Origin: Psilocybe cubensis
Taxonomy: Eukaryota
DNA: 64,000 nt
NCBI GenBank assembly: GCA_017499595.2
Contig: CM038998.1
Coordinates: 3,286,001 to 3,350,000 of the forward strand
Direction of reading: 5' to 3'
Within the stretch, counting starts at the first letter, position 1, and every line of letters begins with the position of its first letter. The notes below the pieces were generated by a model. That model saw only the letters and a list, made by a program, of their open reading frames with translations. It was not told the DNA's origin and searched no databases. Position numbers and translations under genes: made by a program. Shown piece after piece: positions 1-14,836 of the stretch.

Positions 1-75
1 AAGACGACAATGATGAGGATAATTAGTTGATTATGTTTTTGCTCCAATATCTTACATCAATTATATATAATTTTA

Positions 76-1759
76 CTATGCACAGTGACATGTTCGTCCA
101 CACATAAAGCACTTGACTGCAGGTGGTTTATCAGAATTAAAAAAGTCTTCTCGACGCTGTGTTGGGTTATCATTCCAAGATATTAGATATCTCACAATAG
201 TGAGATTAGAAAATTCAGTACTCCATCCACCCCATTCACAAATAGTGCGAATAGACCAACGTCTTTCTGATGAAAGGTATTGGCAACCACCACGACGGAA
301 AGAGTGTGTTCCATATGGTATTGGATCAACGCCAATATCAAGAAGATTGTTTCGGAACAGCTCAAGAAATTGCTCTGATGTCTATTTGAATGAGAAATAA
401 GTAGAAGCATTTGTATAAATAGCATACCATGGGTATGTTATCAGCCGATGGCCTATCCCCAGATGCAATCTTTCGAAAAATGTAGCCATCGGTAATCTCG
501 CTTGCATCAAGCCAATTTGCCATTGCACGAACAGGACAAAGATGAGCCTCATTTTCTGCTAGTAACCGCAGATAAAATGGCTTAATTCCTAAAGAAATAT
601 ATATTAGAATAGACTTCAAATAGTTTAAAAAAGTTTTACCGCCATGCTGATGTGTTTTGCGAAATGGTAGTGTAAGAACCAGTCCAGGTGGATTCATCTG
701 ATAAACAATATGTTCACGTCGGATTTTCAATACCTCATCTGATCGGAGTAGACAGAGAAAAGCAATTGTATAAATTGCCTCAAGAGCGCGTCGGGCTAAT
801 CCTCCTCCCCAATGGTTGCTATCTTGTTCTTTTCTAGACCCTGGAGCATAGGGTTTGATATCATAGTTTTCGGATTTATGATTTTCATCATAAAGAGCTT
901 TTAGAGTAGCTGAGGTGATTGCGCGTGCACTTGTTGGTGTTTCACCATTTCGAATCTAAAAAGGAGATATATAGTCAAAACTACAGCCAATCAAGCAATT
1001 TGAGTGCAACTTGAACATTACCTTCCGAGCACGCAAACTCATCATGTATGTTGCTACGGTGTCGGATACTGATGGATTTCCTATCATTTTACCCGTAAGC
1101 TCATTTCTTCTCCACCTATCTGAGCCTAAACCAAGTTCACGTCCAAAAAGATATGTCATAGACGCTCTCATCTTTTGGCCATGTACATAGGAATCACGGA
1201 CAACATGTGTTGGCTTTAAAGTTCCATCAAGATAAATATCATCGCATCTAGAAAATACGGTAGTTTGAAAAAAATTCCAATAGAGAAAATCAATAAGCTT
1301 ACTTGTCCATAATCCATGCCGCAATGAAAAAAGGTGCATCGTCGGGTGGATTGCAACAAGCAAAATCTTCACGTTTTTTAATCATGTTCTTGCTAATCAG
1401 AAACTTGATACATTGCTTGATAAGACTAGAATAAAAACAAAATAAGCGCACTATTTAGAAATGAAGACAGGATAGTATTACCGCTGATAATCAGCATCAG
1501 TTTTGTCTGTGACTCCTTTAGATGCACCAGTAATTGTATCTCGCCACTTGGAAGCTGTTGGATTGTGGCTATCTAAATCTTCACTAGAAAGATCATGAAG
1601 TGACAGATTGGGCAGAGTCTCTGTTTCACCGTCGAGATCGTTTTCAACGTCTTCTGGTATAAATGGTTCATTTTCAATAGTAGGAGAAGGACTGCCAGAT
1701 ATAATGGAGTTTAGACCGGCATAGATTGAGTTTGAGGGCACCACCATTGAGGAAAGCAT
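76..1759 (-). CDS. Intron-containing tyrosine recombinase (phage-integrase/DNA breaking-rejoining fold) with a C-terminal CxxC-x3-CxC motif
   Basis: Six exons spliced by eye with GT-AG introns and no stops. Motifs: FLCLLRSDEVL (R, ~743), LPFRKTHQ (K, ~657), LCPVRA, YGTHSFRRGGCQY (HxxR, 286-306), EWGGWS, TIVRYL (Y, ~188). Ends CFMCGRTCHCA* at 76. Confidence 0.85.
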
Positions 1760-1974
1760 AGTAGGGATTAGATTTAAGAAATTGTAGCGGAAAGGAGTAC
1801 ACTGATTAGAATATATACTTTTGTAAAGCTTACTGCGGACAAAACAGATAGGAGTAGTAGACTCATTTGAAACACATTGTAAGAAGGCAATTTACAGCAA
1901 GGAGGCGATCTAGTGGCATTATGGTGAAGACACGCTCAAACACGTAAAAAAACAAATATAAGCCATACCTAATT

Positions 1975-3575
1975 CTAAATACCCTCCATCATATTACTTG
2001 GAATCCATGCACGTAGCTTTGGAAGACAATTTTGAATCCAAGAATCGACACTTGATTGATCAAATCGAGGATTTTCTTGAGCCGCTCGAAGCCTATTAAT
2101 GCCATCTTGAATAATGTCTTTTGGAAAATCAATCTTGACACGTAATTCCGGAGAGCGCTTGCTAGATTGTCGCTTCCCAACAATTTGGCCAAAAAACATG
2201 TGGCCATAATAATGAAAGCCAATATCCCGAGCTCGAGCAATTTGCATTGCCGACCTAAGTGCAATTCCAGGAAGAATGCTGTTAGACAGGTGGCGTAACA
2301 TAACCACAGCATCTGTACCCCATACGAAATGATCTTCGGCAAATAGCATCATGGCTGGAAGAGATAGTTGACGAGAAAAAAGAACTGGAATGAGATCATC
2401 GGATACAACAGGATGGAGATAATAGCTTAGTATATCGGAAGAGGGAAAGTCTGCCGGAAGATTGTGGGCCAAAGATGGGCAGCGGCGAGGTAAATGAAAT
2501 GAAGAATTGCTATGAGCTTCACTTATTAGCTGGCTTCGCCATTCATGTAGGAATTGTTGCTGTGCTTCTTGACTGTAGTTGTTTTCCTTAAGGCCACACG
2601 CTAGTGATCGACCAAAACCAGCTTTTGCAAGTCCAAGTGCTGTTTCAATGCCACAGCCTTTGACTCCACCCTTAATAAAAAAAAGTTATAATACAATTAA
2701 TAGAAAGAATAAATTGGAAAATTACAGGATTGTAGTCGCCACCAACCAATAGTGCAATAAGAACCATATCCTCGCTATTCATCTGAAGAGCTTGAAGAAT
2801 ATCAGATGATCGATATACAACCACCTGTTCATCATCGGACACATCTTCATCGCTATTAAAATGCCATATTAAAATTTAGATTGAGTTGAGCTAAAAGTGT
2901 ACTTACATTCGCAAGACAGTTGTGGTACCAAATACAATACTATCAGAGTCTTCTGTAAGAACGGCATCGAGATAGTCCTCCTTTGTAAGTCTGGCAAGCT
3001 CCGCTTCAGCTTCACCAGGTGCCTATTCCCATAATATGTATGAGCCGCCCAAGCCTTAGGCTACTGCAATAACCAATAAAGAACATACCTCACACCAAAT
3101 AAAACCGTAAGCATCTAACAGCGATTTGAAATCAGCTTCAATCCAGTGGCGATTTCCCCTTATGTTCTTTTTGCGCTTTATACTTGGTTTGTTGGGGCCA
3201 TCAAAGACAAAGATGGGCAGAATAGGAAGCGAGTATAGGCGGCTACAGCGAGCATTTAGAGTAGCAAGCTCCATATTCTTTGTAGCACCGTGTCGGTAGC
3301 ATGCACGGTAAATCCACCCCCTATTGTCAATAACACCGAATCAATTTATGTTTTTGAAAAAGAAATCAACAATATATACATACATTGCATCAACACCAAG
3401 CCTATATCCTCGGGTTCCTTGACGGTTTGACATAAATCCATCCTCAACAGCCAGACGTTGAAACGAGGCTCGTGTTGCTACAGGGTCTAGTAGCTACATA
3501 AATCCAATCTGTCAGCAGCTACGTGCAAGAGTCATAGAAAGTCATACGCACCTTCCACAGGCCTTTAACGCCCAT
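1975..3575 (-). CDS. XPG/FEN1-family PIN nuclease, GEN1/Yen1 (Holliday junction resolvase)-like
   Basis: Spliced: MGVKGLWK / RLGVDA / PIFVFDGPNKP / APGEAEAELA..DAVLTEDSD / LIALLVGGDYNP / GVKGCGIETA (H2TH), then the Yen1-like FPSSDILSYYLHPVVS and RAWIP. 3' end uncertain. Confidence 0.85.
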
Positions 3576-3847
3576 CGTATGGAGGCTAAACGAAAGCTAG
3601 ATCAATAGCGGACAAAAGATAGATATAAGATAAACCCACCCGAAATGTTTTGCAAATGTCTAAGCATCAATGTCTGTGAACAGAAACGCATACAGACCAC
3701 GATAATGAGCCAAACTATTACAAAAGGGGTATTATTTGAGCAAAGATTGTGATCTACACAAAAAACTCAAGAGTTCTAGCTGTAATTTAAAATAAATCAT
3801 ATTAATTTTGTAAAAGCGGAGTAGTAGAACAAATGCACGGCAATAAA

Positions 3848-3924
3848 CACCTCATGCTAGCCATACAGAAGCGCCTCGGCCCAGGGATGATCCTTAGTTT
3901 CTTCTGTACGGCTAGCATGTGGTG
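3848..3924. repeat. 24-bp inverted repeat (22/24) with a 29-nt spacer
   Basis: CACCTCATGCTAGCCATACAGAAG (3848-3871) versus CTTCTGTACGGCTAGCATGTGGTG (3901-3924). Confidence 0.9.
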
Positions 3925-4126
3925 CCTAGCAGACACGGCAATATAATAGAATAATATTTTTCAGTACTTGAAAAGCACAACCATAGGCCTGTGTACGTGT
4001 CTGCATGCATGCGAAGAAAGGATTTGAGGTGGCGGCAGTGATGCAAGGAAAGATGATGGATGGTGTGAATGTGTATCTATAGCTTATACTCAGTAATACG
4101 AATAAAATCAAGAATCAAAGAAGAGG

Positions 4127-4181
4127 GCACTGGCAGCCTAGTGTATGCCCAGGCATGAGTATTCCTGGGCTGCCATTGTGC
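4127..4181. repeat. Imperfect inverted repeat / stem-loop
   Basis: GCACTGGCAGCCTAG ... CTGGGCTGCCATTGTGC, with one G-T pair and a 2-nt bulge. Confidence 0.75.
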
Positions 4182-4538
4182 GACGAAAAGGATGGGGGTA
4201 TTCCATAATAAAGTATCAGAACACACCTAGATTCCAATTCTATCCTCTACGTAGCACCCTAAATCAAACAATCTAGCTTGCGCTGCAGGGCAATTTGCAT
4301 GACTAAACGGCTCCGTTGAGCGACAACACTGCAAAAAAAATGCTAAGATACTTACCGGAGTGAGCCTCTTGACCAACCTACGAGACAGACGTATCTCATA
4401 AATTATAGCACCACACAGCTGATGGAGGGAGATGTGCATGGATGGGACGCAAGGAGGAGGTGCATGAACGGGAGAGAGCAGGAATCATCGATTCAACCAA
4501 CACGCGTGCCAGCACTACACGTGATTGGACGTGCTGAT

Positions 4539-4595
4539 TGTAATTCACGCGACTCCTGTAAATTCACGCGACTCCTGTAAGATTCACGCGACTCC
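4539..4595. repeat. Three-copy 18-20 bp tandem repeat
   Basis: TGTAATTCACGCGACTCC / TGTAAATTCACGCGACTCC / TGTAAGATTCACGCGACTCC. Confidence 0.9.
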
Positions 4596-6029
4596 CTGGT
4601 TAAAACACGCGTTACGCACGTTGTATATGGCAGTGTCGTGCCTCGGCAGCAGGCATTAGTGTAGTACGTGAGATAACAAGGTGTGAACGTCATTCTCTCA
4701 CTATGAACTGTCTTTTTTTACAGTAGAACTGTCTTTTATTGGCCCAATTGAGGTAAGCTTGATGCCGTATTTGCCTTCTGATCGTCATTTCTGAGCCTTG
4801 GCTCAATTTCGTAGTTTCCAATCTCGCCAATTAGTCAATACGTTAGTCACACCAATCCACGGCAATCCACCCTACGTAAAAAAGAATGTTTTATTGTTCA
4901 ATTCTACGGTTATGGTGTGTAGTGCGGCATTGAACCTTAAGCTTAGCCAAACTCAAAACCCACTGCCCTCCTGCGAGGAATTTCTCTATGGAACGGGTCC
5001 CTTGAACGTGCTCCAGCAAACTCTAAGTTTTTACAGAAGGTCAGAATCTGAGTCGTAATAATATGTCATATTAGTTAGATCCGGTAAACTACAAATCAGC
5101 ACGAATATGTAGCTTTAAAACAAGCCTTGTTCCCCCTCTCCTTCTTTCCATCTTTCTGCGTCCGTCGTCGGTGTCAAAGCATCTCGAAAAAAATGCCTGT
5201 TGCAATTGATTCATCCGCCCTAGTATGGCAGTGAGTAGGGTTTTATGTACTATCTGGTCGCAAGCTTGCTCCATGCTTTTACTGTTACTTGTGCCCTCAG
5301 AACTTTTCGTTTTTCTTGCTGCTGCCATCCCGAGGCCCTCCACGGCGACGCCGTTTGAACCCGTTTTGAGTGATCGAGGGCACCTCGGCACACCTCTCGT
5401 GCGAGGGTTGTGCGAGGGTTAGGGTCGATCGTAACGCTGTGACCGATGGCGCCGATCGCTTTGTCAGGCTGTGCCAACCGTCTTTCTGCTCGGTCGCAGC
5501 TGTACTTATTTAAAAAGAGGTGTCCATGCCTGATGTCACCGCACCGCATTTGTCTAGCCCCTACATTCATTTTGTCACGTCCCGGCACATTCCGGAGGCC
5601 CCCCGCCGCATCATACTCGGGTCTCTGTCTCTGTTTCTGACCTCCTTTGACCCAGAATACAGAGGAGAATGCCCCAGCAGCGGGCAGAAAAGAGATTCGA
5701 ACGCTACCTCTAGAATCAAGGAATTTGAAAAGACACCTCGGCAGTGCCAGGCACCGTATTCACATACATGCCAATAGATATCTAATTTCAGGCGCCTGTC
5801 AGTACAGCATAACGCGCACCGCAGCCGCCATCGGACGCGCCGACGCGCCACACCGGTGACCGCACAAAATATGCCCGATTCGTACTTTCACGTGCATCAC
5901 CTGTATGCGTCTGTTTGGCATGCTCGTCTCAGTTTGCTCGCCGAGGACGTCAGACAGGACACTTGCAACAGCGAGCACAACTTTTCGGATCTCAAAGCAT
6001 TCTCCTAATATTCGGGTTAAACCCATGTC

Positions 6030-7629
6030 ATGAACCCTCCAAGTTCCCTTCGAGACCTGTATATTGACCCCTCGCAGGCGTGGGCATTTGTCCCCCCAAC
6101 CACACCAGCGGTCGCAAACAGCTCAAGCTCCGCTGCGCCCCTGCCCCCTGCCGACACCGCGAAAGTGCACTCATTTCAATGGTCTACACGCCCTTCTCAC
6201 AACTCGATATTCGATCTCTCTCCTTCTCTGGATCTGTCTGAACCGTCTGGGATCAATGTCGCCCAGCTCTTCAAGGCGTTTCTCGCCTCGGCGGTGCTGC
6301 AGTACACCAGCACGGCCATCGTGATGCCATGGGAGGTGGGCAAGCTGCTGCTGCAGGTGCAGTGGGTGCCCCGAGACGCAGGAGATCCAGAACCTATACC
6401 GCTAGAAATGGGTGAAGACGACAACGACGATGCGGTATGTGTCTACTTTTTTGCAATCCAAAAATACACGTTTTTGACGTTTTAAAAGTTGAGCGACGAT
6501 TCAACAGAAAACGACTCTTATTTTGCTGATCCTCACGCAGCACCGTCAAATCGACCGCCTGCGCCAAGAGCACGGGTGGACGAACAGGGTTACGTCATAC
6601 GACGGTCTGTTTTGGAGGAAGGGACACGGCCAGAGTATATCATACCTGTAGGGAGCGCGGATGGAGTGTGGGGGATGATGAAACGTGTAGGACGATTCCG
6701 TGCAGAGGGCTGGCTTGCGCTATGGAAAGGTACAGGAACTACAAGAATGGCTATTGTATTGAAAGAGCTTATTTTGCAAAACAGGGCTTCTGACTTCATG
6801 TGTGACGGAGGTGGTGTCTGACAGCCTGCAGCCGATGATTCATGGATTCCTGCAGTCGCTATTCTTTCCCTCACTGAGCGCATTCCACCAGCCACCGATC
6901 GTGATCCCAGTGGTGTCGCATCTGATCACCGGATTTATTCTGTCACCTCTTGATCTGATTCGAACGCGATTGATCGTGCAGTCGTTTACGGCTCGCTACC
7001 GAAAGTACACAGGACCGCTGGATGCATTCCGACAAATACTGCGGGATGAGGGAGGACTGTACGGGATGTATTTCCACCCACACCTTTTGATTCCAACACT
7101 GATCGACAACGCGCTGCGGCCGATGGTGTCTGTTGCGCTGCCGGGGATGCTGCTGTCGTACTTTGGATGGGGACACATCACAGAAGACACGCACCCAATT
7201 GGCTGGGGTATGGCAGAGCTGGGAGGGAGCTGCGTAGGGCTGCTGGCGACGCTGCCTGTGGAGACGATCCGGCGGCGGCTGCAGGTGCAGGTGCGGGGGT
7301 CGGCAGAGGCGGTGAAGGGATGTGTTGAGCTGCGGCCAGCGGCATACAATGGGGTGGTGGACGCGTTCTGGCACATTCTGACGGAGGAGCGGTCAGACCT
7401 GCCCATCCGACAGAACGTGCGGCGGCGGCGACCGTCTGTGAAAGGCAAGGAGCGGGAAGAGGCAGAGGAACGAGAGGCAGCAGACGAGTATGAGAGCTGG
7501 TTCCGCAACACAGGGCTGGGACAGCTGTACCGGGGACTGGGGATGCGGCTGAGTGCGAGTGCGGTCGTGTTTGTGCTGGCACTAGTAGGTGGACGGGACG
7601 AGGCGGACTCTGGATGGGCAGAGATATAG
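6030..7629 (+). CDS. UGO1: Mitochondrial fusion protein Ugo1 (mitochondrial carrier-like)
   Basis: Three exons. Carrier-type motifs MPWEVGKLLLQVQ, SPLDLIRTRLIVQ, LPVETIRRRLQVQ, plus EGWLALWKG. Confidence 0.8.
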
Positions 7630-9231: not shown

Positions 9232-10605
9232 TTTGATTTTTTAACATTTTTCAATTTGACGGAGTATCTGTGTGTTGGGGATATGGAGATGATGTTTTTC
9301 TTTTCTTTTTACCCTTTTTTTACAATTTTTTTTCCTTCTTCTTCGATATGTTGGATGATTCGATTTATATCCGTCGATTCGCTTTTTTTTTCTTCTTTTC
9401 TTTTGGTGGAGTTTACCAATTTACGACTTTGGGATCTGGCAAGTTGTGCAAGAATTAAGATTTGGGTGGACGTACTCTCGAAAAAGGCATTGCTACTCCC
9501 CAAATCCCGAGGCGCCGCGAATGGAGAGGAGAGGAGTAAATCTGCGATTAGCAGATATTAGATGTATGTATATGTATATGTAGTTTATTTTTCATGTATA
9601 TATACATACAACTTCACGCACCGGTTCCGAGATTTTTGTATCTCCCAGGTCAGATATTGGATCTTCGTTGAGTGAGGTAAGGTTGATTGTGGAGGGTTTA
9701 ACGTTTAACGTTTATTGCCGTGGATGGGATTGGGGATGGGTTAAAGGAAGAAGCTACACGTCTCTCCCATCTCCATCTCTTTTCTTATATACGGATACGG
9801 AATGTCAATTCAATATATCAACGTTCATGCACATGTCCATCGACATTCGAACGTCAAGGTGTAACATGATCACAGTGAAAGGAACGAGAATATCACATGG
9901 AATTGGACCTTGCTAGTGTCATTTTTCTGAAGTTTAGCTTGAATTTGTATGGTGTTTTGTGGATGATTGAACCTGAGCTGAACCTGACATATAGATTACT
10001 TGTCTTGACTTCTCTTGTCCCTTTTCTTATCATCACCTACTTAGGATTTGTATCTGTACGTACCGAGACTCTATACATTTGGCCAATGGCCCTTTACATT
10101 ACACAAAAAATGTCATGATTGACTCTGATTCGGAGATGAGTCGGATTACTATCACTATCACTCAATCAGTCGCATCCTTCTTACTTGCTATACTGTGTCA
10201 GTGTCGGAGACGGGACAGATGAACGCGGTCAGTTTACCTTTTGATAAATGGAAACGGTATACTATATAAAATGGACCCTGAGAAGTAGCCCTTGATGTAA
10301 CCAATTCAATTCCAAGTTTACTCGGAGGAGAACCTGTACCTGTAAAAGTCGAGAGAGCGTTCAAAATATGAGTCCAAGCTTCAAACAAACACGGTACACT
10401 CTCAAACTTGAACAAAGTCTCAATATTGATACACATACTACACCCATCGCTTATTTACGTTTCGCTTCTACTCCTCCAGCCAAAAAAAAAAGTCCCAGAT
10501 GTACCTTATCCAAAAAACGACAGCCGGCGACCCCCTCGCACACGACATCGAAAAAGAGATAACATCAACCGAATGTTGGCTGATTCAACAAGTCCAAAGA
10601 ACCAA

Positions 10606-12988
10606 TCACGCTAGAGGCAGTCCACAGACATCACAGTCCCCGCCATGGTCGTTTTCGAACGTGCAATGCGGGCAAATCTGAATATTCGACGACCCGCCTG
10701 CACTTGAGTCGCCGGATGCAGCTGCTGCTGCTGCCGCGCGTGCCGCATCGTCTGCTGCGATCTGGTCGTACACTTCCGGGGGGATATCGTCGTCGTCCAT
10801 TCTGTCGGCACCACTTGCGCTGGGACCAGAACTACTCCGTCGAGCAGCTGAAGTAAATAATTAAAAAAAAAGCATCAGCAAGCCGATTCCATTTCTGCGG
10901 AAATGAAAAATGTGAAACGTACGAGCACTTTCCCGGGTGAACGTCATCAAGGTATGCCATCCTTCAGTCTCCAAAACAGGATCGATATTCTTGGCGTCCT
11001 CCAGGAGTGTAGGTGACGTGATAGTACGCATTAAAACCTTAATATCATCCTATACTCACGTAAGCGCACAGGCGCTTAATCATCAGACACAACATCCGTT
11101 TTCGGGGGTAAACATAGGTAGACAAAAACGTACATTGGAAAACAATTGAGTGGTTTGCAGGAACGCGACAAAGTGCCAGTCGCTCAGCCATTTCGCCAGT
11201 TCGATCTTTTTATAGCTTTCGCTTCCTGGATACAATGATGGCGCTTCCAGTCTGTTAAGCGCCGACATGGCAGTCTCGAGACTTTGGTTTTCCAATCCAG
11301 GTCTGTTTTCAATGGCAAATGCAGTAGACTGGAAGATCGGTGACGGGTTTTGTGGGAAACCATGCGTAACCTTTGAGTCATCAAACATCAGCAAGTTTGT
11401 AAACGGCAAGAGTGCAACAGAAAACATACATTCACCAAAAGATATTCAACCGGGAAACAAGGTTTGGCGCTTTTCTTCACTTCAAGGTTGTACTCGTTCC
11501 GGTACGAGAAGAAAACATCAGGAACGTATCTTGCTGAATCGTTCGTCCTGTCTTCTTCCTTCACACGAACGATGCCTGGGTCTACGCTTGCCTCAATCAT
11601 ATCCGCCTCAACCATAGCCACAGCTTGCTCAGAGACTTGATACGCAGACACGTCGACTTGCCCATCCTCAGTGGCTGTTAGGACAGCCGTAACAAGTCGT
11701 GACGCGTACTGTCCAGTGGGAGACGATTTACTGGCCGTCGGGTTGCTCTTCTGCACAGTCGCCGCAAAAATAGCCTCCAAAGATGACAGGTAGAATGATT
11801 GGGGGTGCCGCTTATACACGTTCTTGGTACGATCCTCGGGAGTTGGATCCAAGTCCGTGAAGATGTATCCGACGACTGAGAGAGGCGTCGACGCCTCACT
11901 TGCTAGTTGACGAATACGTGTTTCTTCCTCCCATGGCCAGCCCAGAGTCAGTCCATCAATTTCTCCTTGCTGAGGTGGTTCGTAGATAGCTTCCACTACG
12001 GCCTTGACGCCCATCGGAACCTTGTCATATGGTTCATAGCGACCTATCAACCATCCAAAGCGCTGAAGACCAGTCTTTCTCCACGCTTGAAGGAACCGAT
12101 CGATGATCTCCAATGACGCTATCTCCAGGTGATCAACCATTCGAAACGGCTGCGACTGCAGGGTTATCGAAGAAGGTTGGCACGCAGTACAGATGCCTGC
12201 GGGCCACGGAGGATGTGTGGCAGTCGGACATGGCACTTTGACTTTGTACGAAAGTGGGTTCAAAGGAGGCAATTGGGATGCAGCGGATGCCGATGGTTTT
12301 GGCGTAATCTTCTGCAAATATGCATGATACGATAGATGCTTAATAGAGTGTTCCTTGTGGTATGCGGCATCGTAAGGTTCCAAGGGCATGCAATAATCAC
12401 ACATCCCGTTCAATGCGTGTTTGCAGAATCGTGAATCTCGCTGCCGGGGAATTTTGCCTGATGTAGATCTCCAGTAGGTATCCACAGGATCCTCTTGCAC
12501 GAGCTCCCAGGGACGTTTCGCACTTTCTTTTGCGGCGCCCGTACTCGACGTCGCAGCTGACGTAGAGGGAGCGGGCGTAGCATCATTGCTTTCCGATTTC
12601 GGTTTGTACGATACAAAGACAAGATCGCCATGGCTATGGTATACTGTAAGTCATTAAGATACACGACCGATATGAGGACCACTCACTTGAGACCCAATTT
12701 TTTCAACGTCTGGCCCTTCAAAGCAGAGATCTTGACTTCATTTCCTCGAGGTTGATTTGATATTGTTATACTGGAAACATCGGGATCGGTTGATGTCTCT
12801 AAAATCTAAAAAAGATATCAGCGTTTCTTAACACTTGGGCACACTCTATTCTACCTTTTCCAACAATTTGGAAATGTCATCATCTGGGGAGAAGTCATAA
12901 CGAAAGTTGCCGTCTTTCGATCTGATCCTGATCAACTATGGATAGTGAGTTGAATAGCTAACAATCCAGAAGATCATTCACATACCAT
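10606..12988 (-). CDS. NPL4: Cdc48 cofactor Npl4 with a C-terminal NZF zinc finger
   Basis: ATG-only first exon, then LIRIRSKDG. CKHALNGMCDYCMPLEPY, HPPWPAGICTACQP, QPFRMVDH, FPVEYLLV; ends CPHCTFEN..CDVCGLP. Confidence 0.93.
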
Positions 12989-13569: not shown

Positions 13570-14836
13570 ATGGCGAATCAAGGCTCTTACCGTATGTTTT
13601 GCCTCGCCTCCAACCCAATACTCAAAGTATTATTACCACATCTCTTTGTTGCGTGTTATGCTATCTCTCAAAAGCGAGGCTCTAGAGGACACAGTTTGCC
13701 TTACGTCCCCAGAACCATCTGGTGCTCAGGAATTACAATTCTGGGAAACATTTGCATTTGACATGGAGCGGGAGCAACACGCAAACTCTCGGAATCCTCG
13801 AGACCCACAAAGATCACGCTCTACTTCTACGTCTAATACGACAGCGCAGCATTCGCGTATACATTCAGGAGCTCCAAGTAAGCCATATATATTTGCATTT
13901 CTGTTCCGCGTTCGAACCGTCGTGTCCGTTAGGCGTACAAGATGCTGCATTACTGGCCCAATTTGCCGCTGCCACAGGGGGCGGCGACCTCAGTCAGGTG
14001 TATTCCAATATAATGGCCCAAAACCCTTATCCATCCATGGGCCCAACGCCTGGCTTTTACGGAAACTTCTTGCACCACGGTTCGATGCCGACGCAACTGC
14101 CTCCGCTATCTTCACTTGACTTTCCATGGAATAACGTCCCCCAGCAACCGCAGGCTAGTTCCAGTCATTACGACCACCGTCAAGAAGATCCAAATACAAG
14201 AATGCATACTTTACCACCATATATGGACGCGCAGTTTACACCGTCTGGGCCCCGCCCTGCTCAGACGACTAAAGAGAGCAAGCGAGGGAAAGCGGCATCA
14301 AGCTCCACGGTGAATGAGAATCGATCAACAAGTTCTCCGGAGGTCGATATGACGGAAGCGGAACGCGCAGCCATCGCAGACGAGAAAAGACGCAGAAATA
14401 CAGCAGCATCCGGTAAGAGAAACTCATCTCAAGAACGATAATTCACTGAGCTATAAACATCGCAGCGCGTTTTCGAATCAAGAAGAAGCACAAAACTCTG
14501 GGACTCGAGCGATCCGTGTCGGACCTGACTGGGAGGGCAGAAGAACTAGAGAGAGAGGCTGCCGACTTGCGTAGAGAGAACGGATGGTTAAAAGAAATCG
14601 TCATGCTCAAAGGCACCAGATTTGCCGCAAATAACGCGGCACATAGGGAAGCATTGAGTCAGGCCGCTGCTCTCGCAACTGGTGGTTATACAGACGCGTC
14701 CAGGGAACCTGCGGGTAGTTCGACTCGGAAGGGAGAGGCATCAGAGTCCGAGCGATCAGAATCAGAGTCATCCGATGTTGAGGAAAAAAAGTCAAAGACC
14801 AAGGGGAAGGGGAAGAAATCGTCAAAAAATGAGTGA
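13570..14836 (+). CDS. bZIP transcription factor, Cys-3/MetR/Zip1-like (sulfur regulator family)
   Basis: DEKRRRNTAAS/ARFRIKKK basic region, leucine zipper ending RENGWLKE, N-terminal ELQFWETFAFD. Confidence 0.8.

Follow-up and report, generated by a model that had tools for sequence, protein, structure and literature searches.

The two hairpins upstream of the XPG-like nuclease gene in the window (the whole 64,000-nucleotide stretch that was analysed) each represent one type of a genome-wide family of stem-loops, in which variable, covarying stems carry a conserved tip. Both are read on the minus strand and belong to a tyrosine-recombinase transposon of 7,547 bp in the genome of an agaric fungus. 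The family, whose counts rest on pattern searches of one genome, is real, selected and, as far as our searches reach, undescribed. Judged from sequence, its members probably function as RNA hairpins in the leader or in intron 1. The coordinates of the features are listed in Table 1.

Table 1. Features of the transposon part of the window that concern the two hairpins.
Feature	Position	Strand	Basis and remarks
SAP-domain gene, last codons	1..26	+	SAP E 1.6e-8 on sister copy, copy identity; gene mostly left of window, same element
Tyrosine recombinase gene	76..1759	-	Family wide in Agaricomycetes; 30 relatives; HSFRRGG block
XPG/GEN1-like nuclease gene, several introns	1975..3575	-	Start MGVKGLWK; XPG_I E 1.4e-13, XPG_N E 2.9e-4
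Predicted branch-like word and 3' splice-site AG	3586..3600	-	AG ends at 3586, 10 nt before nuclease ATG
Hairpin 1, type 1 tip on stem of at least 24 bp	3844..3928	-	Inverted repeat and fold
Type 1 conserved tip	3876..3895	-	Tetraloop 3884-3887; U-G and A-G pairs beneath
Hairpin 2, type 2 tip on 11-14-bp stem	4127..4181	-	Fold and stem score
Type 2 conserved 25-nt tip	4141..4165	-	Tetraloop 4152-4155
Predicted 5' splice-site word GTGTGT after AG	4221..4226	-	73 nt upstream of hairpin 2 loop, the usual distance in the family
Predicted strong 5' splice-site word GTAAGT after CCG	4350..4355	-	Sequence
Putative promoter	4500..4620		ACGCG(T/A) at 4502, 4547, 4566, 4586, 4607; three of them belong to a 19-20-nt tandem repeat
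ACTT direct repeat: crossover core, forming the right end of the 7,547-bp element	5504..5507		Copy comparison

The original prediction placed two stem-loops here, and both proved to be real. The arms of hairpin 1 (3848-3871 and 3901-3924; 24 nt each, 29 nt apart) are 92% complementary, and its fold was strong on both strands, with z values of -5.3 (plus) and -7.2 (minus) and 0/200 shuffles equally good. One A.C mismatch of this stem becomes a G-U pair on the minus strand, as predicted. Hairpin 1 matches the type 1 RNA model R1 at 3850-3921, being itself part of the training set of that model. Hairpin 2 folds moderately, and better on the plus strand (z -3.3; 1/200 shuffles as good) than on the minus strand (z -2.3; 5/200). 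On the minus strand, 270-600 nt separate the two hairpins from the nuclease ATG downstream of them. The 12-mer predicted to be shared by their loops was confirmed at 3879-3890 and 4147-4158. In the window alone this motif pair is not beyond chance, as 12/100 shuffles gave at least two matches at 1 mismatch; it is beyond chance genome-wide, where 31 exact matches were found vs 0 for the reversed control. The 11/12 match in a fixed register has a p of ~2e-6. The motif is thus present in both hairpins, but on the minus strand it does not form an open loop; it forms an apical mini-stem with a tetraloop. The match between the two results from features common to both tip types, namely a U-G pair, a C-G pair, the closing pair and an invariant C at the third loop position.

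The 7,547-bp unit is present in five copies with 99.97-100% identity and unrelated flanks: two tandem pairs and one single copy (C1:3276410-3291507, C4:577866-592970, C5:2048724-2056275), with window positions 1-5507 forming part of one of them. In the five copies, ACTT was found at the right end and 7,547 bp leftward, and the two ends share only this ACTT. The tandem pairs are joined by one ACTT. The near-identity of the five copies and the single ACTT joining the tandem pairs indicate that the element was recently mobile. The hairpins lie 1.3-1.7 kb from the element end and are therefore not crossover sites. The earlier suggestion that they are recombination sites for the adjacent enzymes was not borne out: the crossovers are the ACTT repeats, at least 1.3 kb away, and elements whose transposases are unrelated have these tips too. 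Along with its recombinase, XPG-like and SAP-domain genes, the element has one hairpin of each type and no TET. Several relatives of the recombinase are named DNA breaking-rejoining enzyme, and the relatives match Phage_integrase below the cutoff. Two other genera have gene models in which the recombinase is fused to XPG or SAP (P0004, P0016), which makes the linkage an old one.

Cryptons are defined in Kojima and Jurka 2011 (PMC3212892) by a tyrosine recombinase, the lack of terminal inverted repeats and direct repeats of 4-6 bp at the termini. The host element fits this definition, with a tyrosine recombinase gene that contains introns, no terminal inverted repeats and a 4-bp direct repeat at its ends. 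Its tandem copies also fit a circular intermediate, as described there for Cryptons. It does not fit CryptonF, as its recombinase (P0001) gave no match to the GCR1_C Pfam domain at E 0.1. Compared with the Cryptons of that account, it showed no GCR1_C domain, has separate XPG-like and SAP-domain genes, and uses another recombinase family. A literature search returned no paper on elements that combine recombinase, XPG-like and SAP genes. In a second XPG/recombinase element family (L271, L272), both tips are absent, and a different long hairpin occupies the equivalent leader position, ~100-190 nt upstream of the nuclease start. Beyond the insertion, the window contains host genes at 6030-7629 (+), 11388-12500 (-) and 13722-14441 (-), which we take to be of the mitochondrial carrier, NPL4 and bZIP types, respectively, and an intergenic AT-rich 21-nt inverted repeat with a 12-nt spacer at 9560-9613.

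Type 1 pattern searches of the genome gave 49 matches vs 1 control match, and 41 vs 0 for the reversed control; on the strand with the reading GGAUCA-YCCC-UGGGC, most matches cap long stems of unrelated sequence. The tip-anchored stem score was 6-21 in 17 of 29 distinct genome contexts, and the other 12 comprised a truncated copy, chance 12-mers and type 2 copies seen in a different register. L056, L031, L038, L057 and L216-L220 have the 12-mer but no stem and were set aside as chance (at L056 it lies inside a reading frame that presumably resembles an oligopeptide transporter). In metagenome contigs, 95 matches to the same type 1 18-mer had stem scores of at most 4.5, that is, the tip without a stem. 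The type 1 pattern gave 8 matches in prokaryote genomes and 0, 3 and 0 in viral contigs, and protein-based searches of the viral contigs found no such locus.

Seven type 1 hairpins with different stems, stacked without gaps, paired in 91.8% of the cells, and 18 of 26 pairs were changed on both sides (0/500 shuffles); double changes of this kind arise by construction from unrelated stems and show retained pairing, not step-wise change. The five alignable type 1 hairpins showed 96.6% pairing and true double changes at 6 of 29 pairs (0/500 shuffles). Type 1 stems reach 25-45 bp, with mismatches, and their loops are YCCC or CCCG (UCCC, CCCC or CCCG), with an A-G at the fourth position below the loop. 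RNAalifold proposed another fold of the tip; most copies give it a low pairing probability, and the CCCG variant disrupts it. Type 1 hairpins are carried by TET/JBP, KDZ, Plavaka and CACTA-type elements. A variant of the type 1 tip is also present 240 bp inside the left end of a 1,335-bp non-coding element (L258:2760-4096), which has four copies, 47-bp inverted ends and an 8-bp duplication. In the relic L278 the stem is retained and the tip has decayed. Two origins were considered and rejected: in MITEs the arms are conserved, not the centre, and for an HUH origin no homology breakpoints were found at the tips.

The type 2 tip emerged from a scan of regions upstream of TET genes without type 1. 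Covariation was not significant in the first four copies alone. A degenerate 25-mer built from eight type 2 tips matched 62 genomic sites vs 0 for the reversed control, and the stem score was at least 5 in 24/35 distinct contexts vs 0/300 random places. In the alignment of 29 of these 35 contexts (six near-duplicates were omitted), 84.7% of the cells pair, and 90 cells are changed on both sides vs 31.7 after shuffling. The pair closing the loop is A-U in 16, G-C in 12 and U-A in 1 of the 29 sequences, and the fourth pair is U-A in 19, C-G in 7 and A-U in 1. The loops read NGCM in 28/29, the U-G pair is found in 28/29, and C-G and U-G are exchanged (16/9) on one strand. Type 2 stems are often only 10-15 bp long.

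Both tip types are linked to TET/JBP genes. The TET query gave 51 genome matches that correspond to 27 loci, a lower bound, as distant TET types are outside the query. At 26 of these 27 loci, a tip is present upstream on the sense strand (type 1 at 15, type 2 at 11). At the remaining locus, L302, whose TET match contains a stop, neither tip occurs within 3 kb. A tree built from 14 TET domains of this genome plus 9 from other species places the two tip types on opposite sides of one branch with a support of 94/96 (not starred). That the tip type tracks the TET tree is expected from plain co-inheritance. The comparison does show that the tips have outlasted complete turnover of the stem and 40-55% divergence of the TET protein. 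The tips have also spread to TET-less elements of at least four superfamilies. These TET-less carriers, which include Crypton-like, Plavaka, KDZ and non-autonomous elements, share no common gene. Like the window element, one KDZ element (C3:3641868 and 3643848) has one tip of each type. No ordinary host gene with a tip plus stem was found in the genome contexts examined.

Kojima 2025 (PMC12730594) described TET+ DNA transposons of Agaricomycotina, in which an anti-silencing role was proposed for TET, its function not being validated. The elements treated there are of the same kinds as the hairpin carriers (TET/JBP, KDZ, Plavaka, CACTA-type); in contrast to our results, the words stem-loop and hairpin occur 0 times in the searched text of that paper, no leader element is described there, and the window element has no TET.

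With either of two word lists, 18 of 34 representative hairpins have a 5' splice-site word that starts 50-100 nt upstream of their loop, vs 7-8/34 on the antisense strand and 12-14% in random background; because the loose list and the range of distances were set with the sequences in view and some of the loci are kin, the p-values of this comparison overstate its significance. In the donor-bearing cases, the hairpin follows the donor word by 58-91 nt. The TET leaders contain such a word in 13/14 or 11/14 cases, depending on the list. The strict donor test includes the hairpin 2 locus; hairpin 1 has no donor word nearby. The predicted donor at 4355 may begin either an intron of 53 nt (to 4303) or a longer leader intron; for the window, a single long leader intron and short introns at 4355-4303 and near 3640-3586 are equally plausible. 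Promoter-like words are found 48 times upstream and 12 times downstream across the hairpin loci; in the window, the ACGCG(T/A) words are presumably MCB-like. Four type 1 TET leaders have a branch word and an AG no more than 30-45 nt behind the (last) stem, immediately ahead of the start codon; the joint background of this combination is 1.5%. Only the type 1 TET leaders regularly have acceptors soon after the hairpin; for type 2 this is irregular. The annotated TET starts of P0031 and P0033 follow predicted acceptors. The hairpins of several TET-less elements, among them Crypton-like NDC10_II elements that have XPG-like genes, point inward to the 3' end of a gene and would therefore head antisense or non-coding transcripts.

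Two further observations concern the donor words. CCG directly precedes the donor word in four leaders (window 4353-4358, L049, L088 and L106); in the window background it precedes only 2/351 donor-like words. A different hairpin family, with GACTCGAC-type repeats, follows a donor word in the leaders of a KDZ-type element (L221-L222, C1:631400-635150). The GACTCGAC-type family contains neither tip.

The idea that the hairpins form a structured RNA or 5' leader was strengthened by the stem covariation across type 1 and type 2 members of this genome, by the strand polarity relative to TET genes and by the placement behind a 5' splice-site word. In 15 stems, G-U pairs (23) outnumber A-C pairs (13), which also favours RNA. 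On a TET family I stretch, two presumed RNA runs gave 0 contigs and two DNA runs covered it, a result that weighs neither for nor against transcription. The folding energy favours the sense strand in 7/15 cases (mostly type 1) and in 25/35 type 2 cases, and the type 2 tips hold A.C pairs on the sense strand; these mixed strand energies and the A-C pairs speak against a clean assignment to RNA. The mixed energies would fit a single-stranded or cruciform DNA fold of the tips near promoters, bound by a transposon protein such as TET, an HMG-type partner or the XPG/GEN1-like nuclease. Such a fold, which ranks second among the alternatives and which we consider improbable, would also account for the many TET-less copies that point inward from element ends to gene 3' ends with no gene to lead, for the XPG-like genes that adjoin tips in two element families and for the tip kept by the non-coding element. 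However, the near-invariant U-G pair and the C-G/U-G exchange on one strand of type 2, the constant distance to a splice-site word on the same strand and the absence of sequence breakpoints at the tips argue against it. Cruciform extrusion is disfavoured by mismatched tips.

We propose that the hairpins are cis-acting stem-loops in the nascent RNA of fungal DNA transposons, behind the promoter and the first 5' splice site. The stem would be a pedestal with free sequence, and the tip, with its tetraloop containing the invariant C, the U-G pair and a purine-rich internal loop, would be a docking site for a protein. This proposal draws on the analogy that a free stem with a fixed tip is the build of HIV TAR, the iron-responsive element (IRE) and Rnt1p substrates. 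TAR, bound by Tat, and the IRE, bound by IRP, are promoter-proximal hairpins with a conserved tip on an exchangeable stem. The hairpin family, too, has a conserved tip on a covarying stem in the 5' region, and docking would be the shared role. Unlike TAR and the IRE, the family has no sequence identity to their defining loops or bulges, is carried by fungal DNA transposons and lies behind a splice donor.

The simplest reader would be the TET/JBP dioxygenase that the transposons encode, or a partner that accompanies it, because no ordinary host gene was found with a tip plus stem, nearly every TET locus has one and the TET-less carriers have no gene in common. The TET proteins examined have long basic N-terminal stretches, which could bind RNA or be only nuclear signals. 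Binding would tether an anti-silencing activity to the transcribing element, feed back on the splicing of intron 1, or both. The TET module would serve its own leader in cis and the borrowers in trans; TET-less elements would carry the tags to borrow this activity, and the window element would hold one tag per TET clade. This complete chain, a docking hairpin in nascent transposon RNA read by the TET module, is offered as a tentative possibility deduced from sequence patterns. A more specific version seems unlikely: an RNA address code, in which each TET clade recognises its own tip and demethylates the transcribing locus in a Tat/TAR-like manner, and TET-less elements copy both tips for protection. 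Against the chain count the tipless L271/L272 and L302, the decayed tip of L278, the lack of a donor word at hairpin 1, and the speculation in section 4.2 of PMC12730594 that Agaricomycete TETs act without target specificity.

The main rival is a signal read by a host factor, either an enzyme of the RNase III/Dicer type that cuts intron-retaining or leader RNA, or a splicing regulator that times the cargo genes to a developmental stage. A long variable stem under a conserved tetraloop and the position behind a donor word suit this explanation, and the spread across unrelated transposon superfamilies would need no shared transposon gene. The relevant comparison is with the G2-loop substrates of the Saccharomyces cerevisiae RNase III Rnt1p, which, in the account of PMC4334505, have an NGNN tetraloop with the first 5-7 bp below it paired. 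The hairpins resemble them in having a conserved tetraloop on a stem of free sequence, and some Rnt1p substrates lie in introns. The NGCM loops of type 2 comply with NGNN in 28/29 cases, whereas the type 1 loops (YCCC, CCCG) do not. Below the loop, four pairs including the U-G are regular and the fifth pairs in 17/29 type 2 sequences, and type 1 has an A-G at the fourth. In contrast to Rnt1p substrates as described there, ~20-25 nt are conserved around the loop, mismatches are fixed and the hairpins, which would be candidate cleavage sites, are confined to transposons. A single host reader would not need two tip types tied to two TET clades, nor does it explain why no ordinary host gene was found with a tip plus stem, and we regard this explanation as rather unlikely. 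Two others are less probable still. If the hairpins were microRNA-like precursors, the tip would be a processing mark and the stems guides; the length of the mismatched type 1 stems and weak, sub-threshold matches to miRNA models (best E 0.035) agree with this. However, the arm of hairpin 1 has no other genomic site within 3 mismatches, a group-1 arm matches only family members (up to 3 mismatches) and type 2 stems often measure only 10-15 bp, which makes precursors very improbable and leaves the earlier mention of small-RNA precursors without support. Least probable are passive relics of a once-mobile palindrome that was copied with transposons, its pairing kept by template-switch repair and a DNA-binding word lying mid-way. 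Every carrier is indeed a transposon or relic and one copy has lost its tip, but the tip itself contains compensatory changes, its conserved mismatches would have been erased by repair, the polarity and the distance to donor words are fixed, and tips are present at 26/27 TET loci.

Searches for known RNA families gave no counterpart. With Rfam 15, the best match in window 3200-5200 had an E of 0.035, far below the gathering score; no match was obtained for 8 type 1 loci and none to E 0.5 for 11 type 2 loci. Hammerhead, HDV, SECIS, K-turn, H/ACA and Smaug/Vts1 sites were rejected, since the hairpins have neither the core words nor the geometry of these. No paper was found that contains the type 1 tip sequences and nothing was found on such leaders, although consensus sequences in supplements may hold the hairpins unremarked. 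Surveys of structured RNAs found by covariation in fungal UTRs and introns (PMC5640933, PMC8216456) contain no transposon or agaric motif in the portions retrieved, and PMC8216456 covered Ascomycota only and avoided transposons. For the control or aiming of fungal transposon TET enzymes, the tips provide a specific site for mutation and binding tests. If they tether TET, they would offer a natural and portable RNA tag with which to demethylate DNA locally; if they are a splicing or cleavage signal read by the host, they would still be a new basidiomycete RNA family.

Several carriers showed additional features. Crypton-like NDC10_II elements at L326, L327 and L328 (C13:2119000-2128500, C10:494500-510000) form tandem units of ~6.4 and 16.4 kb; some have XPG-like genes, and each has type 2 hairpins aimed at gene 3' ends. 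At each of L329:1578-2087, C10:651945-652550 and C10:1131938-1132537, three type 2 hairpins that differ in their stems lie together within 600 bp, and no gene was identified downstream of them. On contigs C11 (1647001-1752000) and C12 (1795001-1906000), a segment of >8 kb with host genes is present twice on both, inverted, with a breakpoint ~17 bp beyond a type 2 hairpin. Captured fragments of host genes lie within ~1.5 kb of type 1 hairpins in four different transposons (L261:7297-7593, L266:7081-7308, L269:6285-6536 and L089:1968-2657). They comprise pyruvate dehydrogenase E1, SHMT and PTR2 fragments, recognised by Pfam, and an FAD monooxygenase-like piece, recognised by eye.
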